A model generated the notes under the pieces. It saw only the letters and a list, made by a program, of their open reading frames with translations. It did not search any database and was not told where the DNA came from. Shown in pieces: positions 1,876 through 41,434 of a stretch of DNA of 43,613 nucleotides. The translations under genes and the position numbers were made by a program. Location: positions 1 through 43,613 of the IMG/VR virus record IMGVR_UViG_2654587728_000013; one strand, written 5' to 3'. This DNA is from a virus (Duplodnaviria > Heunggongvirae > Uroviricota > Caudoviricetes). The number at the start of each line of letters is the position of its first letter. Position 1 is the stretch's first letter.

Positions 1876-2757
1876 TTACATCGGTACTTCGTTCAGTTCG
1901 TCGCAGCGAATGGTGTAAACGTCAGTTGCTTTTGCCAGCAGGTCATCATCACCAGCCAGTTTCTGGGCAACGTATTTGTATGCTTTGTCCAGGTCAGCCT
2001 GGGTGTTGTAGTTCATCGCCGCGCCGGAAAATGCGTGCAAAATCTCTTCAGGACCGCGATCGTCTTTATGCTGCTGACGCTCTTCCTGCTTCTGCTCTGG
2101 TTTTGAGTTGATCAGGCTGTTCATGCCATGAGCCGTTGCCGCAGATGGCGTGATGTCGCGCTCAACACGCGGTGTTGTCTCCTGCAATTCGTCAGGGGTG
2201 TATACTCCGAGCAGAACATCAGGTGCATGCAGACGAGCCCAACGCTTAACGCACAGGTAAGCAAGCTGCTGTCGTGGATCCTGTTCCCACAGCGGAGAGT
2301 TACGGACACCTGCCTGAGCCATGCTGATGGTAAGCTCGCGCGGCTCTGCTTCGCCTTTCAGTACTGCCGATACTGTTACGGTCAGTGATGGTGATTTGTC
2401 GCTCTTGCCATTCACCTTTGACCAGTCACCATCCCAGCGGTAATTCAGGCGAGTTGAAAGCAGGTTTGAAGAAGACACGACGGCGTTAACCAGTTGTGCT
2501 TCATAGCCAAGAGTTCCGTTTACAACGTGCGTCTTCTGCGCAACAGCGAACGGGTTCATGCCCCATTGCGCCGCCTGCATGGTAACTGCCAGACAATCAG
2601 CAGGCTTTCCTGCCAGGTGCTGAGGAACGGTTGCTTTACTGTCTGCCATCAGGGTTGCGAAACGTACCAGGCGGTCCATACCCTCAGGACTGAATATTGC
2701 AGCCGCTGTCCCTACGGTAGCGCCTGGCTGTGATGTGATTGCGATATCGTTGCTCAT
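1876..2757 (-). CDS. recT: RecT-family single-strand annealing recombinase
   Basis: DRLVRFATLMADSKATVPQHLAGKPADCLAV...QWGMNPFAVAQKTHVVNGTLGYEAQL is characteristic of RecT; start MSNDIA overlaps upstream stop (ATGA). Confidence 0.85.
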   Translation of the reverse strand: MSNDIAITSQPGATVGTAAAIFSPEGMDRLVRFATLMADSKATVPQHLAGKPADCLAVTMQAAQWGMNPFAVAQKTHVVNGTLGYEAQLVNAVVSSSNLLSTRLNYRWDGDWSKVNGKSDKSPSLTVTVSAVLKGEAEPRELTISMAQAGVRNSPLWEQDPRQQLAYLCVKRWARLHAPDVLLGVYTPDELQETTPRVERDITPSAATAHGMNSLINSKPEQKQEERQQHKDDRGPEEILHAFSGAAMNYNTQADLDKAYKYVAQKLAGDDDLLAKATDVYTIRCDELNEVPM

Positions 2758-3575
2758 ACGTACATATCCTGTTTTCGTGCCCATTCAGGGCGTTTAATAA
2801 TTTCCACGCCGCCCCATTCATCGCTGATGCGGCATTCGTGATAGGTGTTCAGATCCCGGCGGAATAACTGATGCCCGGCGTCAACATCTGGCGCATCCAG
2901 CTCGAACACGCGGACAGGGTATCGACCGCAGTCGATGGTTTCGCTCACAGCCAGGAAGAAGAATCCGTGTGGCTGCCCGGTTACTTTCAGTGCGCCTTCG
3001 CGGTACATGGCGTCCTGGACGTGGTAGCGGAATTCCTCGATGTGACGGGCAAAGCGATCCATGTCTGCAACTTTTTTCACATCTACGATCACGTTGTGCT
3101 CATTCAGCCATTTATCTGGACGGATTCGGCACAGTTCGCCAGTCTCTTCGTCATTCCAGTACATCGACGCTTCATAGTGACCTGGTGCTTCCAGCATCCA
3201 CCTCGCCGCAGGGTGGGCCATTGCGCTGTCGCGCATCAGTTTCAGTTTCCGGCCCTGCTCGGCATCCATCACCGTCATACCCATGTCGGCAACGTCTTTC
3301 AGGAATGCTTCTTCGTCTGCTTTTCCCTGATTTGTGCGTCGGTTGAACTGTGGCGCCACGATGAAACGCTTATCGAATTCCTTCGGCTCCAGCAGCAGGC
3401 AGTGCAGAGCAGTACCCATGTCCAGTGCCGATTTTTTCTCTTCATCTTCCGGCGCTGCCTTGACCCATTTCAGAAGGGCAGGGTTCTTGGCCACCATATC
3501 CAGTTGTGACTTACTCACGCCGTCACCGGCGTGGTAGTCCTCGTTGCTGATGTCGAAATAGATACCGGTATTCAT
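2754..3575 (-). CDS. PD-(D/E)XK exonuclease (RecE/YqaJ-like partner of RecT)
   Basis: 273 aa; IVDVKK...EEFRYHVQ nuclease-like motifs; immediately upstream of and coupled to recT. Confidence 0.7.
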   Translation of the reverse strand: MNTGIYFDISNEDYHAGDGVSKSQLDMVAKNPALLKWVKAAPEDEEKKSALDMGTALHCLLLEPKEFDKRFIVAPQFNRRTNQGKADEEAFLKDVADMGMTVMDAEQGRKLKLMRDSAMAHPAARWMLEAPGHYEASMYWNDEETGELCRIRPDKWLNEHNVIVDVKKVADMDRFARHIEEFRYHVQDAMYREGALKVTGQPHGFFFLAVSETIDCGRYPVRVFELDAPDVDAGHQLFRRDLNTYHECRISDEWGGVEIIKRPEWARKQDMYV

Positions 3576-3881: not shown

Positions 3882-4874
3882 TCAGTAGTTGATGGTTGTT
3901 GCTGGAACTTTCCCGCGAGCGATGGCGACAACACATGCTTTCGCCCAGTCATCAGGAATACCCTGTTCAATGAGCGCCTGAACCGCAGCAGCATTAATGG
4001 CACGACGGTGCTCTACATCAGCAGCGCGTGCTGCCGCTTCATCAGCGATGCGCTTCTCTTCCGCCAGACGGGCTACTTCTTTCGCTTCAGCTTCACGCTT
4101 GATGCGATCGGCTTCTTCCTGCGCTTTGCGTTGCTCAACTGCGATAGCTTCCTGTTTTTCGCGCTCGGCACGATCTGCGGCTTCCTTCTTCTCTGCTTCA
4201 GCTTTTTGCTCTGTGGCAATGCGGTTACGCTCTGCTTGCTCTGCCTTGAGCTTTAATTCAGCCTCACGACGGGCAGATTCAGCGCGTTCACGCTCTATTT
4301 TCTCTTCAGCTTCACGCCTGGCCTTTTCTTCCGCCTGGCGCTTCAACTCTTCTTCATGAGCAATGCGCTGGCGCTCTGCTTCTTCTGCTTTCGCCTTCGC
4401 TTCTCGGTCGAATGCGTCGTTCATCAGCAGGGCCATCTCGTGATCCGCTTCGAACTTGGCAGCCCGCTCCTGATCGAACTTGATGTTCATCTCCAGTGCT
4501 TCGGCGTGCAGCACATTCATGGCTTCTTCAGCCTTGATGCGTTCCTGCTCGGCCTCCCATTCGGTAAGTGGGCGGCGAACCTCATCGCGCATCTCATCGC
4601 AAGCTGATACAAATCGACGCAGTTCAGCCTCAGCAGGTTTGACGGCTTCTTTCAGATGACGAAGGTAATCTCGACCAGGCTTTTCAACTGCTGTTTTACT
4701 GCGAGAAACCTGTGCTGCCAGAGATGCAATGCGGGCACGACCTTTGGCAGTGCTCAGGTCCGGAACTTCGTTAACGCTTTCGCGGATCTGTTCGAGGAAC
4801 TTTTCCAGACCGTTTTCTACGTAAATGCTTGGCGCCATATCTGGCGCAATTTCGATAATTGCTAATTCGCTCAC
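3882..4874 (-). CDS. highly charged coiled-coil protein (Glu/Arg/Ala/Lys-rich), function unknown
   Basis: 330 aa; ~200-aa central E/R/A/K heptad-like low-complexity region; GTG start with GGGGGTGAG RBS. Confidence 0.6.
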   Translation of the reverse strand: MSELAIIEIAPDMAPSIYVENGLEKFLEQIRESVNEVPDLSTAKGRARIASLAAQVSRSKTAVEKPGRDYLRHLKEAVKPAEAELRRFVSACDEMRDEVRRPLTEWEAEQERIKAEEAMNVLHAEALEMNIKFDQERAAKFEADHEMALLMNDAFDREAKAKAEEAERQRIAHEEELKRQAEEKARREAEEKIERERAESARREAELKLKAEQAERNRIATEQKAEAEKKEAADRAEREKQEAIAVEQRKAQEEADRIKREAEAKEVARLAEEKRIADEAAARAADVEHRRAINAAAVQALIEQGIPDDWAKACVVAIARGKVPATTINY

Positions 4875-6595: not shown

Positions 6596-7414
6596 ATGAG
6601 CAGATACGCAACAGAGTGGGCATGGAAAACAAATCCGGGCAGCTCATCACTGAAACTCATCCTGCTCTCGATGGCTGATCGAGCCGATGAATACAACCTG
6701 TGCTATCCAAGCATCGAACGCCTGGTTACCGACACAAGCCTGAATAAAAAAACAGTTCAGGCTGGTCTTATTTCGCTCATCGGAATGGGGCTAATTTCAG
6801 ATACAGGAGAAAGAAAAGGGGCAACAAGAAGGGTCCGGGTTTTCTCTTTAAACATACCCAAAAACGGTAATGTTACCAATATTGGGAATATACCCAAAAA
6901 CGGGAAGTTGAATGATCCCAAAAACGGGAAGTTGAATGATCCCAAAAACGGGAAGTTGAATGATCCCAAAAACGGGAAGTTGAATGATCCCAAAAACGGG
7001 ATGCAGAACCTATCAGTTAACCAGTCATATAACCAAGAGAAGGAGAGGGGCGATAAAACTGGGGGTTTAGTGCCTCAGAGGACTGACGCTAACAACGCCG
7101 TGATTAACAACTTTGTCCCTCCTGGTGGACTGGGGCAATTCGGGAAATTTGTCATGCATGAGCACTGGTCACCATCGGATGATTTCCTCCGGGTGTCTTC
7201 ATTGCAGGGCATTAACCTGGATTGCCAGCCAACGCCACAGGAGCTTGCAGAGTTCAGGGTTTACTGGATGGCCGAGGGTAAGGCTTTCCACCATGCGCAA
7301 TGGGAGCAAAAACTTGCCAGACGTCTGCAGATCAGCAGACAGAACAAACTTACCTCACCTGAAAACAACGTACCGCACTGGAACAGTCCAGAGGCGTGGG
7401 AGGATTTCCTGTGA
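6596..7414 (+). CDS. replication initiation protein (lambda O-like) containing the origin iterons
   Basis: 272 aa; N-terminal HTH-like domain; internal PKNGKLND x4 repeats encoded by DNA iterons; followed by P-like gene. Confidence 0.75.
   Translation: MSRYATEWAWKTNPGSSSLKLILLSMADRADEYNLCYPSIERLVTDTSLNKKTVQAGLISLIGMGLISDTGERKGATRRVRVFSLNIPKNGNVTNIGNIPKNGKLNDPKNGKLNDPKNGKLNDPKNGKLNDPKNGMQNLSVNQSYNQEKERGDKTGGLVPQRTDANNAVINNFVPPGGLGQFGKFVMHEHWSPSDDFLRVSSLQGINLDCQPTPQELAEFRVYWMAEGKAFHHAQWEQKLARRLQISRQNKLTSPENNVPHWNSPEAWEDFL
6857..7000 (+). repeat. origin-like iteron array: 4 perfect 24-bp direct repeats (6893..6988) plus flanking partial copies
   Basis: CCCAAAAACGGGAAGTTGAATGAT x4, with CCCAAAAACGG partials at 6857 and 6989; lies inside the O-like gene as in lambda ori. 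Confidence 0.75.
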
Positions 7415-17100: not shown

Positions 17101-17811
17101 ATGAATTTATTTGATCGTTTGCTGCATCGCCGTCTTTGCAATGAGCAACCTGCTGATGGTGGCGCAGCTCCTGCTGCATCTGAACCCGCAGCATCAACTG
17201 GTGATAATCCGGCACCCGCTGGCGATCCGGCTAAACCAGAAGGCGATAAGTCACATCCTGGCACTGAAAGCGACAAGCCTCAGGACGACAAGCCTATCGA
17301 TGGCGATAAGCCAAAAGAGGAAAAGCCTGGTGAAGACAAGGATAAGAAGCCGGAAGGCGCTCCGGAGAAATACGAGTTCAAACCAGCTGAAGGTCAGGAA
17401 CTTGATGCTGCCGCTCTGGAGCAGTTCGAGCCTATCGCCCGCGAACTGAACCTGACTAATGAGCAGGCGCAGAAGATGGTCGATCTGTACGGCACCAAGA
17501 TTATGCCAATGGTCCAGCAGCAGCAGGCGGAAGCCTGGCAGAAAACCACCGAACAGTGGGCTGCTGACGTTAAGGCAGACAAGGAGATCGGCGGAGACAA
17601 TCTCACCGGTAACCTGAGCGCAGCACAGCGTGCTCTTGCTCAGTTCGGCACACCTGAACTGAAAGAATATCTGGAAGGCACCGGCCTGGGTAATCACCCT
17701 GAACTGGTGAAGGCTTTCATCAAAATCGGTAAAGCCATGTCAGAAGACGGCATGGTAACCGGGAAAGAAAGCGGTCAGCGTAGTGCTGCCGAAGTGCTCT
17801 ATGGCAAATAA
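17101..17811 (+). CDS. scaffolding protein (putative)
   Basis: 236 aa, acidic Pro/Lys/Asp-rich N-terminus, helical C-terminus; immediately upstream of capsid gene. Confidence 0.55.
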   Translation: MNLFDRLLHRRLCNEQPADGGAAPAASEPAASTGDNPAPAGDPAKPEGDKSHPGTESDKPQDDKPIDGDKPKEEKPGEDKDKKPEGAPEKYEFKPAEGQELDAAALEQFEPIARELNLTNEQAQKMVDLYGTKIMPMVQQQQAEAWQKTTEQWAADVKADKEIGGDNLTGNLSAAQRALAQFGTPELKEYLEGTGLGNHPELVKAFIKIGKAMSEDGMVTGKESGQRSAAEVLYGK

Positions 17812-17825
17812 GAGAGGAAATAACC

Positions 17826-18812
17826 ATGGCTGTTAAAGGCTTAACTGCGCTGACGCTGGCAGACTGGGGCAAGCGCATCGACCCGAACGGGAAAGTCGAT
17901 AAGATTATCGAGCTTCTCGCACAAACCAACCCTATCCTGCAGGATATGCTGATCGTTGAAGGTAACCTTCCTACAGGTCACCGTACCACTATCCGCTCAG
18001 GCCTGCCGTCAGCAACATGGCGTCTGCTGAACTATGGCGTGCAGCCAAGCAAATCCACCACTGTACAGGTAACAGACTCCTGCGGAATGCTGGAAACCTA
18101 TGCCGAAATCGATAAGTCTCTGGCTGACCTGAACGGCAACACCGCTGAATTCCGTCTGTCTGAAGACCGCGCATTCATTGAAGCTATGAACCAGCAGATG
18201 GCTCAGACCCTGTTCTATGGTGATACCAGTGTTAACCCGCAGCAGTTTATGGGGCTGGCGTCTCGTTATTCCAGCAAATCAGCTGGTAACGGCCAGAACA
18301 TTATCGACGCTGGTGGCACTGGCACAGATAACACTTCTATCTGGCTGGTTGTATGGGGTGAAAACACTGTTCACGGCATCTTCCCGAAAGGTCAAAAGGC
18401 TGGCCTTCATATGGAAGATAAGGGCCAGCAGACCCTTAAAGATGCCAATGGTGGCCAGTATGAAGGCTACCGCACTCACTATAAGTGGGATAACGGCCTG
18501 GCTCTTCGTGACTGGCGCTACGTTGTTCGTATCGCCAACATCGATGTAAGCGATCTGTCTGTTCCTGCCTCTGCTGCAAACATCGTCACTCAGATGGTTA
18601 AAGCTCTGCACCGCGTTCCTAACCTGAAGATGGGCCGTGCGGCTTTCTACATGAACCGCACCGTTGCCCAGGCTCTCGACCTGCAATCTCTGGATAAAGC
18701 CTCTCTGGCTCTGTCCGTCAAAGAGACAGAAGGCGAATGGTGGACCACTTTCCGTGGCATTCCTATCCGTGAAACCGATGCGATTCTGGAAACAGAAGCG
18801 CGCGTTGTTTAA
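17826..18812 (+). CDS. major capsid protein
   Basis: 328 aa following scaffold; strong RBS. Confidence 0.75.
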   Translation: MAVKGLTALTLADWGKRIDPNGKVDKIIELLAQTNPILQDMLIVEGNLPTGHRTTIRSGLPSATWRLLNYGVQPSKSTTVQVTDSCGMLETYAEIDKSLADLNGNTAEFRLSEDRAFIEAMNQQMAQTLFYGDTSVNPQQFMGLASRYSSKSAGNGQNIIDAGGTGTDNTSIWLVVWGENTVHGIFPKGQKAGLHMEDKGQQTLKDANGGQYEGYRTHYKWDNGLALRDWRYVVRIANIDVSDLSVPASAANIVTQMVKALHRVPNLKMGRAAFYMNRTVAQALDLQSLDKASLALSVKETEGEWWTTFRGIPIRETDAILETEARVV

Positions 18813-18863: not shown

Positions 18864-19304
18864 ATGATCCTCGACAAACTGTTGATGTTCTCCGAAGCGC
18901 AGGCGGTTACGGCTTCCGCAGCTTCTACTGATGTAATCGATCTCGGTCCTATCGACGGTACCCGCCGTGATATCGGTGTTGGTTACCCGCTGGAGTTCTG
19001 GGCAAACGTGAATACCACTGCAACCGCAGGCGGTGCTGCAACCCTGAACGTTCAGTTGCAGACCAGCCCGGATAACTCCACCTGGACCACGCTGTACGAT
19101 AGCGGCACGTTGGCGCTAGCGGCGTTGACTGCTGGAAAGCGCCTGTTTTCCGCGAAAGTTCCGGCAGGTGTCCAGCGTTATCTGCGTGTTAACTATGTGG
19201 TCGGTACTGGCCCGCTGACTGCCGGTGCTTTCACCTCGGGAATTAACCTGGATGTTGATAACAACAGCCCGTACTACCCGATTCGTTCAAAAGTGACTGG
19301 CTAA
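18864..19304 (+). CDS. hypothetical structural protein (possible capsid decoration)
   Basis: 146 aa; RBS GGAGA; Thr/Ala/Gly-rich beta-like composition. Confidence 0.45.
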   Translation: MILDKLLMFSEAQAVTASAASTDVIDLGPIDGTRRDIGVGYPLEFWANVNTTATAGGAATLNVQLQTSPDNSTWTTLYDSGTLALAALTAGKRLFSAKVPAGVQRYLRVNYVVGTGPLTAGAFTSGINLDVDNNSPYYPIRSKVTG

Positions 19305-19314
19305 GGGGATAGCG

Positions 19315-19695
19315 ATGTCAGGTGAAAAAGCAAGATACCGCGTCCTGCGTTTATCTCACATTCATAACAACCTCTGGCCAGAAGGCTCTGAAGTTGAGTA
19401 TGACGGCGAACCAGGTACGGCGCTGGAGCCACTGAACGATGCGGCGAAATTGGCAAAAGAGATCGCCGAAAAGCGTAAAGGAAGATCGGCTTCTGTAGTT
19501 ATCAATGTTCCATCTCCAGCTGCGGTTCATCAAGTAGTGGAAGAAGTGAAATCTGATGGCACTGGCGCGGTAAGTGAAGACCTTACTCTGCTTCGACAGC
19601 AGTATGAGGATTTACTAGGCAAGAAGCCGGGCAATAAAACGGCTGAAACTCTGGCAAAAGAGATCGCCGAAAAGCGTGCCGAACTGGGCGTCTAA
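19315..19695 (+). CDS. hypothetical protein with internal 27-bp direct repeat
   Basis: 126 aa; LAKEIAEKR occurs twice; followed by terminator. Confidence 0.45.
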   Translation: MSGEKARYRVLRLSHIHNNLWPEGSEVEYDGEPGTALEPLNDAAKLAKEIAEKRKGRSASVVINVPSPAAVHQVVEEVKSDGTGAVSEDLTLLRQQYEDLLGKKPGNKTAETLAKEIAEKRAELGV

Positions 19696-19711: not shown

Positions 19712-19733
19712 AAGGGGCTTCGGCCCCTTTATT
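19712..19733 (+). terminator. rho-independent terminator/attenuator
   Basis: AAGGGGC-TTCG-GCCCCTT followed by TATT. Confidence 0.6.
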
Positions 19734-19746
19734 GCAGGAGTCCGTT

Positions 19747-20070
19747 ATGGATCTGGTAAACCTCAAAACCGGCACCGACACCTATCAGGATGAGGAGGGT
19801 AAAACCCAGACTCGTGATGATTATCCGTGGGGCCTTTGCATTGAATTGAACAACGAGACGTTAGCCAAGCTAAAGGCAGCACCTCAATCTGCTGGCACTG
19901 AAGTAATGATCACTGCAAAGGCAACTATTCGCTCAACTTCTACCCGCGAAACGGAAGATGGAATGCAGCATAACGCCAGTCTGCAGATCACTGATATGGC
20001 GCTCAGTCCAGTATCCGGTGAGCAACCGAAGTCAGCAGCGCAAACTCTCTACGGTGGGGAGGATGATTAA
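19747..20070 (+). CDS. hypothetical virion protein
   Basis: ORF track start 19732 is TTG; ATG at 19747 with CAGGAG RBS preferred. Confidence 0.45.
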   Translation: MDLVNLKTGTDTYQDEEGKTQTRDDYPWGLCIELNNETLAKLKAAPQSAGTEVMITAKATIRSTSTRETEDGMQHNASLQITDMALSPVSGEQPKSAAQTLYGGEDD

Positions 20071-24170: not shown

Positions 24171-26792
24171 ATGCCAACAGTACCAACAGTCACCGGTCGA
24201 CAGGTAGAAAGCAGAGGGTTTCAGTCTCCTGGGTTTCAGGCATTCGATCAGCCAAATATCGGTGATGCTATCGTCGACGCTGGCAGCAAAGCCATCAACG
24301 TATTTGGAGAGGCCAAGCAACGGGCAAATGTGGCACTTACCCAAGAGGCAACTCTTCAACTGAATGCGGTTGGCAACGATCTGCTAAATAACCCTGATTC
24401 AGGATTCATGAATCTGCAAGGGAAGAACGCGATCGGCAAGGGGCAGGAGTACGTGCAGCAGTTTGATTCTCAGGCGCAGAGCATTGCAGCAAGCCTGCCG
24501 GATGAGCAGGCGCGAAATGCGTTTCTTCAGCAGGCACAGCAGCAGAGAATCCAGTTCAAGACGACCGCTGTTCGCCATGAAGTTGGGCAGGTGCGTCAGT
24601 ACGAAGCAGGTATGCAGGAGGGAACGTTACGTTCGCTGGCACAGCAGGCGATTTCTCCTGGTCTGTTTGTTCCTGCATTGATGAATGCTCGTAATTCTAT
24701 TATCGCTTATGGGAAAGCCCACGGACAGAGCGATGAGGAAATAGAGTCTAATTTCGTGCAGTGGCGTGAGCAGGCCGCCAACCGCGCCAGCGAAGCATGG
24801 TATACACCAACCTATCAGCAAATCATGGGGCCGGAAGGTAAGATCGAAGTTACCGACACTCCGAGCGAATCGCAGCTTTTTTCCGCGATGATCTGGCAGG
24901 AATCCGGAGGTAATCAGTATGGCAAAGACGGTTTACCACTGGTATCTCCGAAAGGTGCAGTAGGGGTGGCGCAGGTGATGGAGGATACGGGGCCGGAAGC
25001 AGCACGACTGGCTGGCGTACCGTGGGATCGTGATAAGTGGCTGAACGATACGCGCTACAATGCGAAGCTTGGTCAAGCCTACTTCGGCGCGCAGATGAAG
25101 AAGTATGACAATAATCCTGTACTGGCGGTGGCGGCGTATAACGCTGGGCCAGGTGCGGTTGATGGATGGATAAAGCAGTTTGGCGACCCGCGTACTGGTG
25201 CGGTGAGCAATGAGCAATTCGCTGCGGCAATCCCTTATGATGAAACTCGCAACTATGTCGCGAAAGTAACCGGCAGCGCTCCGGCGATACCAGGAACTGC
25301 TACGATGGAAAACCTCATCAATCAGCCTTTCTGGGATGCGATGAGTCCGCAGAACAAATCAGCGATGATGAGCAAAGTGGCAGGCATGTACGATATGCAA
25401 GCCGCAGCTGGTCGCGTGTCATTGCAAAGCCGCATGCAGGATGACCTTGCTAAATTAGAGTCAGGACAGAAAGTTAACCCGATCTCGGAACGTGAGTGGC
25501 TGGCGGTCATGCCGTTGCAGGCAAGCCCGGCGGAGCGCATTCAGATGCGCGAGTCATTCCAGCAATATCAGCAGGCGATGACGCTGCAACCGGTATATCA
25601 ATCCATTGTTCAGGGTTCTGCGCAGCAGGGTATCGCTGCGGTGCAGTCTATGGTGCCGCAGGAAGATGACCCTGACTTTAAATTTAAGCAGAGCTTGTAC
25701 GCAACTGCGCAGGCCAAACTGAATCAGGTAATTAAAGCGCGCGAGTCCGACCCGGGTACGTGGCTACAAGCCAACTCGCCGGTGGTGAAAAACGCCTTTG
25801 AGCAATATCAGAACAACCAGGCATCAGGTGAATATCTGGTTTCCCGTCTGCAAGCAGAGAAAGACCGCCTTGGTATCAATAGTAAGAAGGTACTTCCTGA
25901 CGCCATGGTTAACAACCTCATTTCTCAGATCGATAACAATAAAGAATCAAGCGTAACCGCCATTCAGTCGGTGGCGCAGTCGTTCGGAAAATACTCCGAT
26001 CAGGTTATGCAGCAGGTGCAGAAAAGCGCATATCCAGCGCTTCAAGTCATCATGGCGACCAATAATCCTCGGGCCGCCAACGCGCTCTGGCAAAACCGCA
26101 GTGTTAAAACTTCTGACCTGCGCGGCAGCTTTGAGAAGACAGACGCCGACAGCGCTGATTCATCTTGGAATGACCAGGCAAAAGATTTTGCCGGGACGAT
26201 GGTTGTACAGCCTGGCGGGTCTGCCGTGTGGAACAACTTCAACGAGCAGGGTAAACGCCTGACCTACACCTATATGCAGCGCGGCATGTCGCCTGGCGAT
26301 GCAGCAAAACAGGCATATCAGGACGTTCTCGGTGAGCAGTATCAGACCAATGGCACCTGGCGTATGCCTAACAACGCCGGGCATGATATTCGTGACGTTA
26401 ATGACGGCGCTAACGTGTACCTGAAGAATCTGTCAGCAGATCAGATCATGCCGCTAATCGGTGACGCCCGTCTGCCGGATGAGGTTAACCGAGAGCAAAG
26501 TATTTCCCGCATTCGTGATAACGCACAGTGGGTAACCAACAGCGACGAAACAGGGCTTACGCTGATGATGAATGGTCTGTTGATCAACAATGCGCAGGGG
26601 CAGCCGATTACAGTTTCGTTTGCTGACCTCGCGAAACTTGGCGCTGGCAACCGTACAACTTGGAACAGCCTGACCAAATTCGTGCAGACGCCGGTTAAGT
26701 ACACTCCGGGCCAGTCGAAGAATTACACGGTAGAAAGTCAGCGTGAAAATCTGATCAACATTATCCAGAACGGCCAGCAGACGGGACGATAA
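24171..26792 (+). CDS. internal virion protein with lytic transglycosylase (SLT) domain
   Basis: 873 aa; WQESGGNQYGKDG...GVAQVMEDTGPE...AAYNAGPGAVDGW matches SLT signature. Confidence 0.75.
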   Translation: MPTVPTVTGRQVESRGFQSPGFQAFDQPNIGDAIVDAGSKAINVFGEAKQRANVALTQEATLQLNAVGNDLLNNPDSGFMNLQGKNAIGKGQEYVQQFDSQAQSIAASLPDEQARNAFLQQAQQQRIQFKTTAVRHEVGQVRQYEAGMQEGTLRSLAQQAISPGLFVPALMNARNSIIAYGKAHGQSDEEIESNFVQWREQAANRASEAWYTPTYQQIMGPEGKIEVTDTPSESQLFSAMIWQESGGNQYGKDGLPLVSPKGAVGVAQVMEDTGPEAARLAGVPWDRDKWLNDTRYNAKLGQAYFGAQMKKYDNNPVLAVAAYNAGPGAVDGWIKQFGDPRTGAVSNEQFAAAIPYDETRNYVAKVTGSAPAIPGTATMENLINQPFWDAMSPQNKSAMMSKVAGMYDMQAAAGRVSLQSRMQDDLAKLESGQKVNPISEREWLAVMPLQASPAERIQMRESFQQYQQAMTLQPVYQSIVQGSAQQGIAAVQSMVPQEDDPDFKFKQSLYATAQAKLNQVIKARESDPGTWLQANSPVVKNAFEQYQNNQASGEYLVSRLQAEKDRLGINSKKVLPDAMVNNLISQIDNNKESSVTAIQSVAQSFGKYSDQVMQQVQKSAYPALQVIMATNNPRAANALWQNRSVKTSDLRGSFEKTDADSADSSWNDQAKDFAGTMVVQPGGSAVWNNFNEQGKRLTYTYMQRGMSPGDAAKQAYQDVLGEQYQTNGTWRMPNNAGHDIRDVNDGANVYLKNLSADQIMPLIGDARLPDEVNREQSISRIRDNAQWVTNSDETGLTLMMNGLLINNAQGQPITVSFADLAKLGAGNRTTWNSLTKFVQTPVKYTPGQSKNYTVESQRENLINIIQNGQQTGR

Positions 26793-26793
26793 T

Positions 26794-28500
26794 ATGCCGA
26801 TTTATACAGATGACCCAGGGCAGGGAATAAACCAGCCGCTGTCGAATGCCCCATCAGGGCTTGGTGAATCGCTGCTTTCCTCCCTGAAAGAGGGATTCAA
26901 AGAGGGGCCTGTTGTGTCAGGTTATCGGTTTTCTCAAGCCGACCAACTGGCAAATGACCCAAATTCGACCATCGTCAGTAAATCTGACGCGGAAACACGC
27001 CTTAAAGAGTACGGCGTTAAAAGTATCAATGTGCCTGACGGCGGTGTTACACAAACATTCCTCGACCATGTGATCAGCGAGCGCAGAGAAACTCTGGCGA
27101 AGCAGCAGATCGCCATGTCTGCCCCGTCTGGATGGGTTGCCACTCCGCTTAACTTTGCCGCAAACCTTGCAGGATCAATGGCTGATCCCGGTAACGTGGC
27201 TTTGGCGCTGGTCCCGTTCGGTGGAGAAGCAAAGGCGGCAACTATGCTTGGGCGCTTCGGTGAGCGTCTTTCCACCGGTGCTCGGCTTGGCGCTGCTCAG
27301 GCCATTGCCACCGTACCTCTGACGGCACAGGCAGCAGCGGCAGAAGGAGATGACTTCACATATGGCAACGCGCTGGAGAGCACCTTCTTTAACACCATCG
27401 CTGGCGGGTTGATGCACGCTGGCGGCGGGCTGATATCGGATGTGGTACGCTCCCGCAGGGCTGGTACTGTTGAAAATCCTGCTGCCTCGCAAGACGTTCA
27501 GCCTGTCGCTGATGCGCAGCCAACACCGGTGTTTACGCCTGACAATATACCGGCAGGCGTAAATATTCCTGAGTCCGGCACCAACGCCGATCTGTCAGCG
27601 GCAATCGCGCGGGATGCGGAAGCGTATGCCTACAGCCGCGCCTATGATGATGTTGTGCCGGAATATATGGCAAGGCAGCAGGAGCTACAGACAGGGAGCA
27701 TTGACAACGTTGCGGATCTGCGAACTGAGTTGGTGACCAACAACAGGCAAAGTGAGGCACTTGACGCAACTCTGGCCCAGCGCACGACCGATTACCAGGC
27801 GCAACGCATGAAATTCAAAGCAGCACGAGCCAGGGCGCAGCGAGATATTGAGGTTGAGAAAGACGCCATCACCGCGCGTAACCAGGAAATTACGCAACAG
27901 ATTGAACGTAATGCTGCAGCAGAGCAGGCAAAAGGCAGAGAGGCGCAACTGTCCCGCAAAGAGATACCTGACGACTTGGCGCCGTTGATAGCCCAGCGTG
28001 CGCAACAGATTCGCGAAAGCATGCAGATGTCGCCTGTGGCTGGCGCAGTGCGCACTGCGTCGGCAGCGGTTCGTGAGGCTGACTGGAGCGTTAACCAGCA
28101 GGCGTATCGAGGCGCACTGGCGCACATGATGGAAGGGCGCTCGCCTGATATTGAGCCATTCTATGATCTGCACAAACCAGCTCTACGCGAGCGTGCTATC
28201 CAGCGCATACAAAATCCGGTGCGGCAGGCTGATGAAGGTTCCCGCGCCGTCAGTGAAAGTGCGGATCGTGTGTGGCAGGATACGCAGAAGGTTGACCATG
28301 AAATAACAGCGGCTACCGCTGATCTGGAAAATGAATTTAATATCAGTGATGCGCTGCTGAACGACATTGCCACTGACAATCCTGACCTGGCTGCGTCGAT
28401 GCGGGAGAATATTGCAGCGATCCGTGCAGAGGCCAGTGACGACTCTATCGGAAAAGCGTACCGCGCTTTCGCCGCCTGTCTGATTAACCGGGGGCTGTAA
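26794..28500 (+). CDS. internal virion / ejection protein (putative)
   Basis: 568 aa; in injection-protein block. Confidence 0.5.
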   Translation: MPIYTDDPGQGINQPLSNAPSGLGESLLSSLKEGFKEGPVVSGYRFSQADQLANDPNSTIVSKSDAETRLKEYGVKSINVPDGGVTQTFLDHVISERRETLAKQQIAMSAPSGWVATPLNFAANLAGSMADPGNVALALVPFGGEAKAATMLGRFGERLSTGARLGAAQAIATVPLTAQAAAAEGDDFTYGNALESTFFNTIAGGLMHAGGGLISDVVRSRRAGTVENPAASQDVQPVADAQPTPVFTPDNIPAGVNIPESGTNADLSAAIARDAEAYAYSRAYDDVVPEYMARQQELQTGSIDNVADLRTELVTNNRQSEALDATLAQRTTDYQAQRMKFKAARARAQRDIEVEKDAITARNQEITQQIERNAAAEQAKGREAQLSRKEIPDDLAPLIAQRAQQIRESMQMSPVAGAVRTASAAVREADWSVNQQAYRGALAHMMEGRSPDIEPFYDLHKPALRERAIQRIQNPVRQADEGSRAVSESADRVWQDTQKVDHEITAATADLENEFNISDALLNDIATDNPDLAASMRENIAAIRAEASDDSIGKAYRAFAACLINRGL

Positions 28501-31046
28501 TGGCTAACGAATTTCTTACGCAATGCGAAATGACCGTCAATGCAGCTGCCGGGCGCAAGCTGTCTGATGACGAAATGGAATCTTTGGTGCGTGACATGAA
28601 CGACACCACAAACCGGATACTGGCTGGTAATGAAGCACTGACGCTGGAAGAAGCAGCGATGCGCGCCGCGCAGGAGCTTGGTAATCGCGAGCAACTGGCT
28701 AAAGTCATTGAGGCACGGAATAAGGCCATTAATACCCGTATTGCAGCTCAGCGCCTTGGCGAGCTTCGCCGGACTTGGAAAGACCGTCCGGACATCGGTC
28801 TGGAGGCTATTCTTGTCGGACGTAATGACGCGCGCACTGGTTCCCGCCGCTCGGTATCCTCTGAGGTTGCCCAACTGCGCGGTAAGTATCATGCTGGTAT
28901 CAACTATGATTTCGACCAGGCAGGACTGGTTAAATTTATTGCCAGTGGCAGCAATGACCGCGAGATAGCCGACGCCATGTGGCGCATTGGCCGCGGACAG
29001 AAAACGGACGGTATGACGCCGCAATCAGTCAGTGCCGCTAAGATCATCATGAAGTGGCAGGAAACTGCGCGCGTGGATGAAAACCGTGCTGGTGCCTGGA
29101 TTGGTAAGATGCCTGGCTACATCGTCCGGCAGTCGCATGACATACTGAAAATCCGTGCCGCCGGGTATGAATCCTGGCGCAATACCATTCTGCCGCGGCT
29201 GGATGATGCCACCTTTGACGGGATCACAGACCGAGAAGGGTTCCTGCGTGGTGTCTACGACGGCCTTGCCTCCGGTGTGCACCTTACCTCTGAAAAACCA
29301 GACTGGATGAATGGCTTTAAGGGATCGGCGAATGCGGCCAAACGAGCCAGCCAGGAGCGGGTGTTGCACTTCAAAGACGGTGTTAACTGGCACGAATACA
29401 ACGAGCAATTCGGAACTGGCAGCCTGCGTGAGGCAGTATTCGGCGGACTGAACAGCGCGGCGCGCACTACGGGCATGATGCGCGTGCTTGGTACCAACCC
29501 GCAGAACATGTTCAAGTACCTGACAGACACCATCGCAAAAGACGTGAGCAAGCAGAGCAACCCTTCGGCGCTGGCTGATTTCATGACCAAGGTGCGCCGC
29601 CTGAATCGCACGGTTATGCCACAGGTTGATGGATCGCTGAATATCCCCGGCAGTGTTGGCTGGGCTAATGCCTCAGCCAACGTGCGCGGCTGGCTGCGTA
29701 TGAGTCAGCTTGGAGGAGCGGTCATTTCATCTTTTAACGACGTGCCAATCTCGGCGACAGAAATGCGGTATCAGGGCCAGAACTTCATGCAGGCGCTGAC
29801 CGGCGCGATGAAGGGGCGCTTTTCCCGCTACACCAGTGATGAGCAGAAGGAGATCCTTTCATCTATCGGCGTTTACTCCGACGCGATGACGCAGGAAATC
29901 ATCCGTCGCATGTCTGGCGACGACAGCATGAGCGGCAAGATGGGGCGTGCGCAGCAGCTATTCTTCAAATACAACCTTATGAACTTCTGGACAGAATCCG
30001 GGCGTAACAGCAACGCCATGATGATAACAAACTGGCTGGCGAAGAACGCCGATCAGCAATTTTCTGCACTGCCGGAGGACCTGCGCCGCGTTCTGGACCT
30101 GCACGGCATAGGTGACGCTGAATGGAATATCTACCGCAGCATGGACATGGCAGACAGCGAAGGCCGCAAATTCATGACGACCAGCGGAATTCGTGGCGTT
30201 CCGGATGAGGTGATAGCCTCATATGTTGAAGGAAAAGGCATGAAGGTCACCGAGCGATCTATTGCCGATGCGAGAGACACGCTGGAAAGCCAACTTCGTG
30301 GGTATATTCTTGACCGACTAAACATCGCTATGTCAGAGCCGGGAGATCGTACGCAGGCGTTTATGAAGATGGGCACTGTACCAGGAACAGTAGCTGGGGA
30401 GGCAATACGTTTCGCTGGTCAGTACAAATCGTTCACTGCGAGTTTCATGCAGAACGTGCTTGGACGTGAGGTATTCGGGCGCGGTTATACTCCCGCTGGC
30501 CTGGGTGAATCAAAAACAGGATCGCTGACGAATGCGCTGCTGCGTAACGGAAAAGGTGCATTCTTGGGGGCGGCAAACCTGTTCGTCTGGGCAACCATGT
30601 TTGGCTATATCTCTATGCAGTCGAAACTATTGCTTAAGGGGCAGACGCCGCGTCCGGCAGATGCCAAGACATTCCTCGCAGCCGCATCTCAGGGCGGCGG
30701 CCTAGGCATCTTGGGCGACTTCATGTTTGGCGAAGTCAATCGCATGGGTGCTGGTCCAGTGACATCATTGATGGGGCCAGCCGCGTCGAACGCTGATAGC
30801 ATTATCACGCTGTTCCAGCAGACAACGCGCGGCGATGCAGACCTGGGTGACTGGTATCGCACCGCGCTGGACAATACGCCTTTCCTTAACGTGTTCTGGC
30901 TGCGCACAGCAATGAATGGTTTAATATTGAACCGTATACAGGATGCTCTTGACCCTGGATCACTGGAGCGCTATCAGCGCCGTGTTGAACGGGAGCAGGG
31001 TAACGACTTTCTGATCCCACCATCGCAGTTCATGCTAGGGAAGTAA
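28500..31046 (+). CDS. large internal virion / ejection protein (putative)
   Basis: 848 aa; last large gene of the core block. Confidence 0.5.
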   Translation: MANEFLTQCEMTVNAAAGRKLSDDEMESLVRDMNDTTNRILAGNEALTLEEAAMRAAQELGNREQLAKVIEARNKAINTRIAAQRLGELRRTWKDRPDIGLEAILVGRNDARTGSRRSVSSEVAQLRGKYHAGINYDFDQAGLVKFIASGSNDREIADAMWRIGRGQKTDGMTPQSVSAAKIIMKWQETARVDENRAGAWIGKMPGYIVRQSHDILKIRAAGYESWRNTILPRLDDATFDGITDREGFLRGVYDGLASGVHLTSEKPDWMNGFKGSANAAKRASQERVLHFKDGVNWHEYNEQFGTGSLREAVFGGLNSAARTTGMMRVLGTNPQNMFKYLTDTIAKDVSKQSNPSALADFMTKVRRLNRTVMPQVDGSLNIPGSVGWANASANVRGWLRMSQLGGAVISSFNDVPISATEMRYQGQNFMQALTGAMKGRFSRYTSDEQKEILSSIGVYSDAMTQEIIRRMSGDDSMSGKMGRAQQLFFKYNLMNFWTESGRNSNAMMITNWLAKNADQQFSALPEDLRRVLDLHGIGDAEWNIYRSMDMADSEGRKFMTTSGIRGVPDEVIASYVEGKGMKVTERSIADARDTLESQLRGYILDRLNIAMSEPGDRTQAFMKMGTVPGTVAGEAIRFAGQYKSFTASFMQNVLGREVFGRGYTPAGLGESKTGSLTNALLRNGKGAFLGAANLFVWATMFGYISMQSKLLLKGQTPRPADAKTFLAAASQGGGLGILGDFMFGEVNRMGAGPVTSLMGPAASNADSIITLFQQTTRGDADLGDWYRTALDNTPFLNVFWLRTAMNGLILNRIQDALDPGSLERYQRRVEREQGNDFLIPPSQFMLGK

Positions 31047-31047
31047 T

Positions 31048-31419
31048 ATGAACAGAATTATATTAATGACTCTTCTTATTTTTTTTGTTGGAAAAGCTTC
31101 TGCTGATACTACATCACCTTTAATGATTCAGCCTAAAAATGGAGAAACATTGGAGGATTCTAAAAAGCATACAATGGAATACTTTGGATGCATAAAAGGG
31201 CAGGCTGTAAAGTATGCCAAGACAGGAGAAAGTGTTGATTCCATATCAAAAGCTTCGGTTGTGTCATGCGAGTCATATATACCAATGATCGCCGAGTCGA
31301 ATATATATTATTTAAACTCTTCGCAAGATGGTAAGCGGCAATTTACAGAAAGGCTAAAATCTGATGGTGAGAGATTAGCCACAAAATTTGCCATGGATGA
31401 GAAGATTAAAAATAAATAG
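31048..31419 (+). CDS. small secreted protein (AT-rich moron)
   Basis: 123 aa; signal peptide MNRIILMTLLIFFVGKASA; visibly low GC (estimated ~35%, not computed). Confidence 0.55.
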   Translation: MNRIILMTLLIFFVGKASADTTSPLMIQPKNGETLEDSKKHTMEYFGCIKGQAVKYAKTGESVDSISKASVVSCESYIPMIAESNIYYLNSSQDGKRQFTERLKSDGERLATKFAMDEKIKNK

Positions 31420-31427
31420 GTGACCAC

Positions 31428-31724
31428 ATGCAAGCTATTGGTTTCATTGTTTACATAGTTGTTGGTCTTTTTCAGTTGGCTGCGATCATGGCTGGTCTTG
31501 AATCGTGGTGGGGACTGCACTGGATAGTGGCTGCACCCATTGCTTTCATCGTTAGTTATATCCCGTTGGTCGGTTCCATTGTTGGAATGGTTGGCGCTGT
31601 CGACGTATGGCGTTGGGAATGGTGGCAGGCAGGGCTTCTTTTCTTTGGCGGCCTGGTTTTTGCTATTGCGTGCGGGGGGATGTCTTCGTTCTTCGAATGG
31701 CTATCCTTCAGGAAAAGAGCGTGA
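31428..31724 (+). CDS. small three-TM membrane protein
   Basis: 98 aa; three hydrophobic helices; RBS AGGTGA; stop overlaps GTGACATGTCAC palindrome. Confidence 0.55.
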   Translation: MQAIGFIVYIVVGLFQLAAIMAGLESWWGLHWIVAAPIAFIVSYIPLVGSIVGMVGAVDVWRWEWWQAGLLFFGGLVFAIACGGMSSFFEWLSFRKRA

Positions 31725-31732
31725 CATGTCAC
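31721..31732. repeat. 12-bp palindrome GTGACATGTCAC (copy 3 of 3)
   Basis: Exact copy overlapping stop of 31428..31724; GC hairpin 25 bp downstream. Confidence 0.6.
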
Positions 31733-31748
31733 AAAGGCCACTGCACCC

Positions 31749-31771
31749 ACAAAAAAGCCCGCGTCGCGGGC
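31749..31771 (-). terminator. rho-independent terminator (minus strand; possibly bidirectional)
   Basis: GCCCGCG-T-CGCGGGC hairpin with A-run on plus / T-run on minus, directly after stop of 31772..32236. Confidence 0.55.
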
Positions 31772-32236
31772 TTACTCTTCTTCATCGCTACCAAAGAGCG
31801 GGTTATCGTTGTAGTCAGAGAGAAGAAACGGTATGTGCTCCCTCGAATACCCAACCACAACTATTTCATCTCCGTCTTTCGCATAGTGAATGCATTCATT
31901 TGAATGCTTCCCACCAGGGTTGAATTTTAAGTCAACAGTATGATTTCTGAAGGTGTTAGGATACCACGTGGGACCACAATGATAGTGCCAGTAATTTTCC
32001 TGCTCATAATTGTCTGAACCGGGAATTTTATCATAGTTGTCGTCAACCCAAGATGGCTTGTTTTTACCTACAAGCGTTCTGCCATTGGCAACATCTTCCA
32101 TAAAATTTTGGATGGTTTCCAACTCCAGGTCCGTGAGATGTGGTCCATCTACTGCGAAAGGTTCGTTACTGGCACCGGTTATAAAGCCAAATGCAACCCT
32201 AGGCTTAAACTTCAAGTTACACCCCTGACAGGTCAA
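31772..32236 (-). CDS. hypothetical protein with acidic C-terminal tail
   Basis: 154 aa; only start-like codon at 5' end is TTG immediately after in-frame TAA of upstream small ORF; start uncertain. Confidence 0.4.
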   Translation of the reverse strand: MTCQGCNLKFKPRVAFGFITGASNEPFAVDGPHLTDLELETIQNFMEDVANGRTLVGKNKPSWVDDNYDKIPGSDNYEQENYWHYHCGPTWYPNTFRNHTVDLKFNPGGKHSNECIHYAKDGDEIVVVGYSREHIPFLLSDYNDNPLFGSDEEE

Positions 32237-32404
32237 TTATTTTGCGCGAAATGCCGCCTTGAAGTCGTTGAAAGAAGTCCCTGACTGATAAGTCATGTCC
32301 TGGTCGCGATCTTTGTTAGCGCGACCAAGCATTACTTTACCAATGGCATCCCAGCATTGCTTGGCTTGCTCATTTTGTTGAGTCCGATTTTTCAACGCTG
32401 TCAT
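32237..32404 (-). CDS. small ORF (55 aa) in same frame as downstream 154-aa ORF
   Basis: Found by manual translation (below ORF-track size cut-off); strong RBS AGGAGA; ends at TAA followed in frame by TTG of next ORF. Confidence 0.35.
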   Translation of the reverse strand: MTALKNRTQQNEQAKQCWDAIGKVMLGRANKDRDQDMTYQSGTSFNDFKAAFRAK

Positions 32405-32418
32405 AGTGCGTCTCCTTC

Positions 32419-32435
32419 TTTACCTTTGAGGTAAT
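32419..32435. promoter_or_regulatory. operator copy TTTACC-TTTGA-GGTAAT over RBS of small ORF
   Basis: Perfect TTACC-N5-GGTAA. Confidence 0.5.
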
Positions 32436-32499
32436 ATTACGCGAATCTACGTCACACCGCCAATGATTATTTTATAGGCGCATCCCTGCGCCATCGTCA

Positions 32500-33198
32500 T
32501 CAGAACTTACCAGTCATGCTGTTGATGTACTGCGCATGAGTCTGGATATCGCGCAGGCATTTACTGGCGCCGACAATGTAGCTCATCATGGCCGCGAACT
32601 CTGCTACAGCACCTTCAACATCATGCCCGTCTGCGTCCAGTTGGCGTAGCAGGCTCATCATCAAAGAGTGCTCTGTCAGACCAAGAACACCTTCAGGTGA
32701 ATGGATGTGTTCACGGTAGTTTGGCTTGAGTGGGGCGCTGTATTCCTGTTTCTCTTCCGTCTTCATCGCTTCCAGAATGGCGGGCATGAAGCTGGCTACA
32801 ACCTTTTGCGCTTTGTCTGCCGGTGATAATTCTTCACGAACGTATCGACCAGTGCGGCGGATTTGCGGAAGAACGTCGCCAGTTACCCATTTGCGGAAAC
32901 GATAGGGGATAGTACCAGGAGTTACCGCATCGCGGCAGCGCAGGATCAGAGTGTAGAGGCCGGATTCAGAGATGATGAGGGTATTAGGGTTCCCTCGTTT
33001 TCCGTCGGTTAAAGCGACGGTATTCTTTTCGTCGTCATCCAATTTAAGCAGAGCATCACGGTTGTTTGATATACCAAGAGCATTACATACATCTAACGCA
33101 ATAAACCATGGCTCGCCGTCGATGATGATTGCACGAATATCGGCTTGCGATTCGAAAGAAAAAACTGAAGTATTTTTTTGAGTTGTCATAGTGATCAC
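32500..33198 (-). CDS. Bro-N domain antirepressor
   Basis: 232 aa; N-terminal FSFESQADIRAIIIDGEPWFIALDVCNALGI matches Bro-N; distinct C-terminal domain. Confidence 0.7.
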   Translation of the reverse strand: MITMTTQKNTSVFSFESQADIRAIIIDGEPWFIALDVCNALGISNNRDALLKLDDDEKNTVALTDGKRGNPNTLIISESGLYTLILRCRDAVTPGTIPYRFRKWVTGDVLPQIRRTGRYVREELSPADKAQKVVASFMPAILEAMKTEEKQEYSAPLKPNYREHIHSPEGVLGLTEHSLMMSLLRQLDADGHDVEGAVAEFAAMMSYIVGASKCLRDIQTHAQYINSMTGKF

Positions 33199-33457
33199 CT
33201 TTTAGTCTGGTTAATCACCACCGGAGGTTCCAATCTCGGAGGTGGTGAACTGTGCAGGGTTGGAACTACCGGCTAAAAGGACCCGGCGCACCTTTCGGTG
33301 CCCCCACACAGCCCACCATAATGCGAATGTGGCCGTGCTTAACGCATAAAAAAACCGCTTGCGCGGTGAATGCGCCTTTTAGTATCCGGGGTTCCAATCC
33401 CGGCACTGGATTTTGCCAGTGCCTGATCACTATGGCACAAGTATTTTGCGTTGTAAA

Positions 33458-33474
33458 TTTACCGTAAAGGTAAT
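33458..33474. promoter_or_regulatory. operator copy TTTACC-GTAAA-GGTAAT in antirepressor promoter region
   Basis: Perfect TTACC-N5-GGTAA. Confidence 0.5.
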
Positions 33475-33504
33475 AATAAACGCATTATGTAGGTTATTTC
33501 AACC

Positions 33505-33765
33505 TTATGTGGTTTGCTTGCGTAACTGTTCCGCACAGTAATCGAGATGCGTTTGCAGATCCTGCATGGTCATTTGAGAGCTTGTTACGTAATTCACAAG
33601 GGCAACCAATTCAGCCAGCGGCCCGTCAACGTTGAAGCCGTCTTTATCGAGTTCCCGCAGCAACTTCATCAGATGCGAGTCCTCCACCAGGGATCTAACG
33701 CCTACCGGCGTGTGTATTCTTTCCTCAAATCCTTCTTCCAGCGGATGGTGATACTGCCGTTGCAT
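33505..33765 (-). CDS. stand-alone paralog of the antirepressor C-terminal domain
   Basis: Aligns by eye to C-terminus of 32500..33198 (HLMKLLRELDKDGFNVDGPLAEL vs SLMMSLLRQLDADGHDVEGAVAEF); start at MQRQYHH with GGAG RBS. Confidence 0.5.
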   Translation of the reverse strand: MQRQYHHPLEEGFEERIHTPVGVRSLVEDSHLMKLLRELDKDGFNVDGPLAELVALVNYVTSSQMTMQDLQTHLDYCAEQLRKQTT

Positions 33766-39210: not shown

Positions 39211-39689
39211 TCTGGGCATTCATCAAAGCGTACTGGAAACAGTTGCTTATCGTAGTGATGCTTGCGGCGCTGGTTATCGGTGGAGTGGTTGCGTGGAAGG
39301 ATAACGGCGACCGGAAGTATGCCGCCGGGTATGCTCAGGCGCAGGCAGACCAGAAACAGGCTGATGATAAAGCCCGTAAACACGACGAACAGGAGAAAGT
39401 GATCAATGAACGTGAAGCGCAGCAGAGGATCGACCAGGCGCGTAATGATGCTCTTGATGCTTCCGCTCGCGCTGGCCGGTTGCAGCAACAGCTCGTTGCC
39501 ATCCGTGAGCAGCTCAGGCAGTATAACTCCACTGTCGGCGCTGGGACGTCAGCCGCAGATACCGGCGTTTTGCTTACCGACGTGCTCAGCAAATCTCTCG
39601 AGCGAAACCGACAACTGGCAGAGTACGCTGACCGGGCCGCCGAAGCCGGAAGAGTCTGTGAAAAGCAGTACGATTCGCTGACTAGGTGA
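39207..39689 (+). CDS. i-spanin (Rz-like)
   Basis: 160 aa; N-terminal TM helix then Gln/Ala/Arg-rich coiled coil; follows endolysin. Confidence 0.7.
39406..39681 (+). CDS. o-spanin (Rz1-like lipoprotein) embedded in +1 frame
   Basis: 91 aa; RBS AGGAGA; signal peptide with lipobox LALAGC; Pro/Ser-rich; fully nested in i-spanin gene. Confidence 0.6.
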   Translation: MNVKRSRGSTRRVMMLLMLPLALAGCSNSSLPSVSSSGSITPLSALGRQPQIPAFCLPTCSANLSSETDNWQSTLTGPPKPEESVKSSTIR

Positions 39690-41311: not shown

Positions 41312-41434
41312 TTAATAATCAGTGATTTAAGTGGATATACTTCTTTTATCTACGCCAGGAGAGCAATTTTAGCCGCTAAAATTTACTGAATCTTTACTGG
41401 TTTTATCTGGATTGCATAAAAAGGAAAAATAAAA

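Follow-up and report, generated by a model that had tools for sequence, protein, structure and literature searches.

An exact 26-nt direct repeat lies within a small head-module gene of a temperate Salmonella phage. We read it as the probable footprint of recurrent short-tract gene conversion, or of double template switching, between two segments of that one gene, and we assign this reading a probability of roughly two in three. Evidence for it includes that the repeat unit is chimeric, that substitutions are found in both copies of the same allele, and that other segments of the same protein family are repeated, in frame, in other lineages.

The window (the whole stretch of 43,613 nt that was analysed) is the genome of a Uetakevirus-type (epsilon15-like) prophage, whose head module is 95% identical to those of the Salmonella phages PAT1, 65FD, and 66FD and ~78-80% identical to those of phiV10, TL-2011b, and Tyrion. 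Its products include an integrase, a RecT/PDDEXK-exonuclease pair, a replication protein, and SLT-domain and tailspike proteins; neither the window ORFs that were scanned nor the annotation of 65FD contain a reverse transcriptase. Away from the head and early regions, similarity to 65FD, the closest sequenced relative, is patchy at 24269-33505 and 39374-43613, where the regions for the internal virion protein, tailspike, and integrase differ, as is typical of module mosaicism.

The repeat and the gene that carries it

The initial annotation of this gene had described an exact 27-bp direct repeat at about 19455 and 19662, which gives the protein a duplicated LAKEIAEKR segment. The peptide is indeed encoded by both copies and an exact direct repeat does occur twice in the gene, but its maximal length is 26 nt (TGGCAAAAGAGATCGCCGAAAAGCGT), one base shorter, and the position given for the second copy was about 10 nt too far downstream (Table 1). 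The 25-mer quoted at the time occurs on the plus strand exactly twice (19452-19476 and 19653-19677), with no third copy on either strand at up to three mismatches in the whole window, and none of 100 dinucleotide-preserving shuffles of the sequence gave a 25-mer match. The 26-nt copies start 201 nt apart, i.e., 67 codons, and are in frame with each other. Their Leu codons differ (TTG versus CTG), and identity stops at the first base of that codon. Two dispersed copies separated in this way by a unique spacer do not make a tandem repeat or contingency locus, and no copy-number variants occur among 72 alleles. An assembly artefact is excluded by the presence of the repeat in the independently sequenced phages PAT1, 65FD, and 66FD as well as in many IMG/VR contigs.

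Besides an iteron array at 6851-7005, the 26-nt pair is the sole exact local direct repeat of at least 16 nt in the 43.6-kb window. The array consists of about five units of 24 nt (GAATGATCCCAAAAACGGGAAGTT) and a related 20-mer pair; it sits inside the replication-protein gene (6596-7414; HTH_36 and DnaT domains) and looks like origin iterons within an initiator gene, in the style of lambdoid phages. Elsewhere, an imperfect 22-nt direct repeat (4080-4101 and 4299-4320, 91% identical, spaced by 219 nt or 73 codons) may be another intragenic repeat, within a minus-strand ORF of 330 aa that has no Pfam family (3882-4874).

The gene itself had been placed in the structural region, rightly so, and is the counterpart of epsilon15 gp9 and phiV10 p12. 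Its product matches PHROG 590 over its full length (residues 1-126 against profile positions 1-111, E=3.4e-42). The position is also the same, because the gene is flanked in the same order by Bbp16-like and gp10-like genes: it follows the major capsid and Bbp16-like genes, the latter directly, and precedes the gp10-like gene and the tail-tube A- and B-like genes of Uetakevirus. The window shares with epsilon15 and phiV10 the terminator hairpin after this gene (the matching site is annotated in epsilon15 as a bidirectional rho-independent terminator) as well as the invariant residues of the N-domain and the C-terminus. Epsilon15 gp9, however, has 94 aa where the window's protein has 126, the window's linker being longer, and the LAKEIAEKR duplication is absent from epsilon15, phiV10, Tyrion, and BUCT554. 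Both Bbp16-like and epsilon15 gp10-like capsid “staple” proteins are thus encoded in this head module, with gp9 in between; Bbp16 is the cement protein of Bordetella phage BPP-1.

Table 1. Coordinates in the window of the repeat, the gp9-like gene, its neighbours, and the recombination genes
Feature	Position	Strand	Remarks
RecT-family single-strand annealing protein	1876..2784	-	PF03837, E=2.5e-31; RecT annotated in 65FD
PDDEXK-type exonuclease (DUF3799), RecT partner	2754..3575	-	PF12684, E=7.1e-22; “putative RecET” in 65FD
Scaffold/“protease” gene	17101-17811		Head module
Major capsid protein	17826-18812		PF20911
Bbp16-like (epsilon15 gp8-like) protein	18864..19304	+	PF21190, E=3.9e-43; upstream neighbour, without comparable repeats
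Shine-Dalgarno-like AAGGGGA	19303..19309	+	5 nt before ATG, overlaps the Bbp16-like stop codon; read from the sequence
gp9-like gene, 126 aa	19315..19695	+	ORF; PHROG 590, E=3.4e-42; syntenic with epsilon15 gp9 and phiV10 p12
Repeat copy 1	19451..19476	+	26 nt, (L)AKEIAEKR, aa 46-54, first helix after the N-domain; lineage-specific, replaced AAKKKA(D/E)QK
Repeat copy 2	19652..19677	+	26 nt, (L)AKEIAEKR, aa 113-121, in the conserved C-terminal helix ..AETLxxxIAEKRxELGV
GC-rich hairpin AAGGGGC-TTCG-GCCCCTT	19712..19729		Directly 3' of the gp9-like gene
Epsilon15 gp10-like capsid protein	19747..20070	+	PF21628, E=2.2e-46; downstream neighbour, without comparable repeats

A function for the gp9 family did not emerge from homology, which beyond PHROG 590 gave only uncharacterised phage proteins. 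The protein has no Pfam match at E<=0.1 and no NCBIfam match, a PDB sequence-profile search and Foldseek searches of PDB and BFVD returned nothing informative, and the N-domain is only weakly SH3-like (E>2). In the literature searched for epsilon15 gp8/gp9 and phiV10 proteomics, we found no statement on the role of gp9. An AlphaFold2 model built with 37 homologues (mean pLDDT 66) predicts a small five-stranded beta N-domain (aa 7-39), a helix at 42-57, a disordered linker at 57-84, and helices at 86-101 and 110-124, which would put copy 1 in the helix at 42-57 and copy 2 in that at 110-124. The orthologue alignment has a corresponding layout: the N-domain and the C-terminus (LRxxYExLFxxKPxxNxxAETLxxxIAEKRxELGV) are conserved, and the linker between them varies in length and composition. 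The protein is accordingly predicted to have two domains joined by a disordered, variable linker, the C-terminal one being a conserved helix-turn-helix. We take the motif LRxxYExLFxxKPxxNxxAETLxxxI to resemble Rho_N; a HeH/Rho_N/SAP-like C-terminal domain was nevertheless rejected, as Pfam gave no hit at E<=0.1 and PDB none by sequence or fold. When 1.84 billion representative proteins were searched with a profile, 433 relatives came up, most of which share the N-domain only.

In-frame repeats across the gp9 family

Exact intragenic direct repeats of at least 14 nt occur in 33 of 72 distinct alleles of the gene, compared with a longest repeat of 8.3 nt on average, and 13 nt at most, in codon-shuffled controls (n=2160). 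At the same loci, repeats in the flanking 380 nt upstream and downstream are never longer than 12 nt. The repeated segment varies with the lineage. In Tyrion, in Klebsiella, and in many prophage alleles of E. coli, the end of the N-domain, (A)LEP(L/I/M/V)N(D/E)A, recurs 75-96 nt further downstream; other lineages have a second DGEPGS or DGKPGS after 123-147 nt, and remote homologues repeat (E/K)PGEEV and (H/N)LLEEG. The segments of the conserved domains that recur in this way, in frame and exact over 14-30 nt, number at least five. All 35 repeats of at least 12 nt are spaced by a multiple of 3. Such spacing agrees with homology-guided conversion, or with duplication and subsequent deletion, and does not fit random templated insertion; it is also expected if selection favoured the duplicated peptide. 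We also considered whether independent insertions of the spacer had left the second copies behind as target-site-like duplications, and rejected this: the spacers of different lineages are homologous, and the segments flanked by three of the repeat types overlap.

Copies within one gene are closer to each other than to the copies of other lineages, synonymous sites included. The strongest statistics for such co-variation belong to a repeat type different from the window's, in sister lineages: for the PxN(D/E) type (type A), 10 haplotype pairs give 0.3 differences per 12 nt within genes versus 2.2 between genes (permutation p=1e-5). Variants common to both copies of one gene include CCC ATC AAC GAT, CCA GTG AAC GAA, CCG ATG AAC GAT, CCG CTG AAC GAC, and CCG CTG AAT GA-, so that the synonymous choices CCC/CCG/CCA, AAC/AAT, and GAT/GAC are all found in both copies. 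Because synonymous choices co-vary, homogenisation acts on the DNA and not on the peptide alone. Some alleles have a one-mismatch repeat (L094, L068, L070, and L052), and in the abundant phiV10 type the second copy is fully decayed (EPVNDAA versus KIINDVS). The process is therefore sporadic, and such states are what sporadic conversion plus mutation predicts.

Other internal duplications were noted in relatives. In a remote homologue (P0144), 30 aa of the N-domain are duplicated in tandem, with NNTLV.EG.IVEFEGDAGANLEPLKKEPAK present twice, and in a near homologue (P0030) the Lys-rich helix has a tandem AEQKAEQK; both further indicate that internal duplications are readily taken up in the gp9 family. 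An ancient three-fold internal repeat (“P-x-N-D-A-A + helix”), seen by eye in short segments of low complexity, is speculation.

The repeat had also been proposed as a recombination substrate, for which an allele of the expected kind in a sister lineage gives indirect support only. An 87-aa gp9 protein (P0124), encoded at 1501-1764 of L176 (a 46-kb contig, Logan ERR5464220) with capsid and tail-tube neighbours intact, corresponds to the allele of the Klebsiella ST11-OXA245phi3.2 type (L006) minus 78 nt, i.e., one repeat plus the spacer, and the deletion junction falls, in frame, inside a 16-nt repeat. Since this is an exact repeat-to-repeat deletion allele, repeats of this kind appear to be resolved in nature by in-frame deletion. 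For the window's own 26-mer, on the other hand, the predicted 201-nt deletion junction is absent from IMG/VR and JGI metagenome contigs, and no junction for the E. coli-type repeat was found in viral contigs. The 201-nt deletion would take out the conserved LRxxYE helix and is probably selected against for that reason. Only one deletion allele was found; with such alleles this rare, the intervening segment, perhaps the repeat arrangement too, is likely to be under some selection.

Selection on the protein is a rival explanation. Two identical peptides (LAKEIAEKR in the window, EPLNDA or DGEPGS elsewhere) might be functional, e.g., in bivalent binding of a single partner or as an intramolecular mimic of part of the folded domain, with conversion merely supplying coordinated changes. 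The in-frame spacing of all repeats agrees with this, as do the non-synonymous variants (I/L/V/M, D/E) common to both copies, the persistence of the arrangement across the clade with few deletion alleles, and the placement of both copies in predicted helices. Yet the repeat is missing or decayed in about half of the alleles, the abundant phiV10 type among them, the choice of segment changes from lineage to lineage so that no single motif is required, the deletion allele sits in an otherwise intact structural module, and protein-level selection alone leaves the synonymous co-variation unexplained. We consider it unlikely as the explanation of the repeats, and possible as a contributing filter.

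Origin and co-variation of the two copies

The repeat had been put down to a recent internal duplication. Comparison with orthologues agrees with this insofar as the upstream copy is lineage-specific: the repeat is no ancient feature of the whole family, and phiV10, Tyrion, BUCT554, epsilon15 gp9, and 111 homologues have AAKAAKKKA(D/E)QK instead. Copy 2 lies inside the C-terminal helix that is conserved in the family, and at the site of copy 1 nearly all other members have AAKAAKKKA(D/E)QK(R/H)G. Because this segment has the same length, copy 1 is an equal-length replacement of a Lys/Ala-rich helix and not an insertion, in which respect the proposed duplication does not hold.

The sequence of the unit points to transfer between two sites that were already alike. 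The closest repeat-free relatives are of the Cronobacter type (L090); there, 13 of 18 nt already agree between the two sites when these are aligned in register (AAGAAAAAGGCGGAGCAG versus AAGGAAATCGCAGAGAAG), which makes the upstream site ~70% similar to the C-terminal site before conversion. The 111 homologues that lack the repeat have neither Leu46 nor Ile50 at the upstream site and rarely Lys53/Arg54, whereas all of them have A47/K48 there; at the C-terminal site, Ala114 is never found, and Lys takes its place in 106 of 111. L46, I50, K53, and R54 of copy 1 thus derive from the C-terminal site, and Ala114 of copy 2 is a derived residue that matches the invariant Ala47 of the upstream site. 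Across these homologues, the derived state at one site is the ancestral state of the other. The repeat unit is therefore chimeric, with sequence having moved in both directions at least once.

The repeat-bearing clade is found in Salmonella, Citrobacter, and E. coli. Its 13 distinct 381-nt alleles have 78 variable sites, and the subclades diverge by ~10-12% overall and by 16-22% at third positions; copy 1 and copy 2 nonetheless have 0 differences in all 13. The only variable sites inside the repeats of these alleles are the paralogous pairs 153/354, with C->T in both copies of L093, and 156/357, with A->G in both copies of L018. A mosaic allele (L094) is in an intermediate state, with GAG in copy 1 and GAA in copy 2. 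At ~64% protein identity, L091 and L092 have a shorter repeat of 16-18 nt at the same two sites, in which that lineage's own synonymous variants (GCT GAG AAG CGG AAA) are present in both copies, and in some alleles both copies run on with AAAG to give a 30-nt repeat. For this repeat type (type C), differences per 12 nt are 0.67 within genes versus 2.2 between genes (permutation p=0.011); the co-variation behind this value consists of the two paired substitutions and the L091/L092 haplotype.

Several of these alleles have peculiarities of their own. In L094 (on an ENA ERZ1309396 contig), an N-domain of another subtype (MSLSEIPRFKLLEKSFIDG...) is joined at LEPLNDAAK to a linker and C-terminus of the window's type, and the upstream major capsid gene is split into two ORFs (116 and 209 aa) by a frameshift or a sequencing error. 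In L091 and L092 (Logan contigs), a 201-aa tail-tube-A-like gene comes straight after gp9 without an intervening gp10-like capsid gene, a gene order that differs from that of the window and epsilon15, where the gp10-like gene comes after gp9.

A single recent duplication, whose copies are identical for lack of time and without ongoing homogenisation, would account for a repeat that is exact and absent from distant orthologues, and among PAT1 and 65FD (1-2% divergence) the identity of 52 nt is unsurprising. It is contradicted by identical copies throughout a clade as diverged as this one, which also speaks against calling the event recent, and by two substitutions that are each in both copies of the same allele. 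Nor does it provide for the absence of added length, for a chimeric unit that needs at least two transfers, or for the within-gene identity and between-lineage difference that recur in the other repeat types. We regard it as very improbable.

Mechanism and relation to known systems

In the mechanism that we favour, recurrent conversion or template switching, two Lys/Glu/Ala-rich segments coding for alpha-helices, already alike at 13 of 18 nt, would exchange sequence non-reciprocally. The C-terminal helix would have given most of the unit (L, E, I, K, and R) to the upstream helix, and the upstream site would have returned Ala to the C-terminal helix. Later substitutions would again have spread to both copies, which would thus evolve in concert. 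The same process would have been repeated in the gp9 family, with at least five pieces of conserved domains copied in frame into the linker. Fixation may be preferential where the protein tolerates change, in the linker and the flanking helix, which is the probable reason for the location of the copies. The RecT/exonuclease pair of the phage is a candidate catalyst of short-homology annealing, and as a side effect the repeats would become substrates for in-frame deletion of the intervening segment. From the sequences, we infer both the molecular mechanism, be it a template switch or annealing-mediated conversion, and that the duplicated peptide has no special function.

The repeats might instead be selected as such. 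An exact linker copy, kept by each lineage, of a piece of its own folded domain or C-terminal helix could act as an intramolecular mimic competing for the same partner, be it on the capsid or elsewhere, or the repeats could form a reversible in-frame deletion switch between long and short gp9 within a phage population, with nucleotide identity kept because it sets the rate of switching or conversion; we give this little credence. Still less probable is a nucleotide-level element (paired DNA- or RNA-binding sites, a recoding or bypass signal, or a selected deletion switch for long and short isoforms), for although identity and co-variation extend to synonymous positions, products of a deletion or bypass could be translated given the in-frame spacing, and a sister lineage has a natural deletion allele, the window has no third or complementary copy, there is no Rfam match, the RNA fold is mildly stable (z-score -2.4) and mostly terminator, the reading frame continues past copy 1 without the stop of T4 gene 60 bypassing, the repeated sequence and its position vary by lineage with many alleles having no repeat at all, variable third positions in the repeats (4/18) are not clearly below those in the rest of the gene (38/108), and the window ORFs scanned and the annotation of 65FD have no reverse transcriptase or DGR components. 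On the same counts of third positions, which are not distinguishable, we rejected lowered variation in the repeats by nucleotide-level selection. A DGR with a TR/VR pair was likewise rejected, since those ORFs and the 65FD annotation have no RT, the repeat is exact and 26 nt long as against ~100 nt or more, and the one-mismatch states have no adenine-specific pattern. So was programmed translational bypass of the T4 gene 60 type, as the ORF is continuous through the copies and the spacer, and the spacer encodes the conserved LRxxYE helix.

Concerted evolution and gene conversion of intragenic repeats are established in repeat-containing bacterial surface proteins and in multigene families. The gp9 repeats share with classical concerted evolution that copies within a genome are more alike than orthologous copies and that substitutions spread to both. 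They differ from the usual conversion substrates in having far shorter tracts, as two dispersed copies without flanking homology in a 126-aa phage protein. Intrinsically disordered regions are also known to expand by internal duplication. Here too there is a likeness, as the copies are found within or beside a linker that is variable in length, compositionally biased, and modelled with low confidence, and as relatives have tandem duplications; in the window, however, the copy replaced predicted-helix sequence without lengthening the protein. Deletion between direct repeats, by slipped-strand or single-strand-annealing events, is a process that L176 fits, whereas the window's 26-nt repeat has no junction among the IMG/VR and JGI metagenome contigs.

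Another parallel is template switching, which homogenises short inverted repeats in yeast coding genes (PMC8604942). Shared with this Ripley model is the multi-nucleotide, multi-residue replacement that perfects an imperfect short repeat in a coding gene, in parallel lineages. The cases in PMC8604942 are quasi-palindromes with arms of 7-16 nt and spacers of at most 70 nt, whereas the gp9 repeats are direct, 14-30 nt long, and 75-201 nt apart; direct repeats are mentioned there as preliminary only.

Although it has more structure than first described, the gp9 repeat belongs to a known kind of process and is no new biological system. What is new is the example, a well-replicated one, of concerted evolution on a small scale and of deletion mediated by repeats. 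From the point of view of annotation, an uncharacterised small head-module gene with an internal repeat is an ordinary finding, which gains weight only if the duplicated segments prove to be functionally selected. Short-repeat homogenisation in coding DNA is documented mainly for inverted repeats, and gp9 offers a direct-repeat case with clear synonymous co-variation. The family is a compact natural case in which direct repeats of 14-30 nt appear to arise, to be homogenised both ways, and at times to be resolved through deletion, with dozens of sequenced alleles and a phage group that has its own RecT recombinase. It is a possible test system in which to measure short-tract conversion in phages, and the view of gp9 as a two-domain protein with a dispensable-looking linker may help to work out its role in the assembly of epsilon15-like virions.
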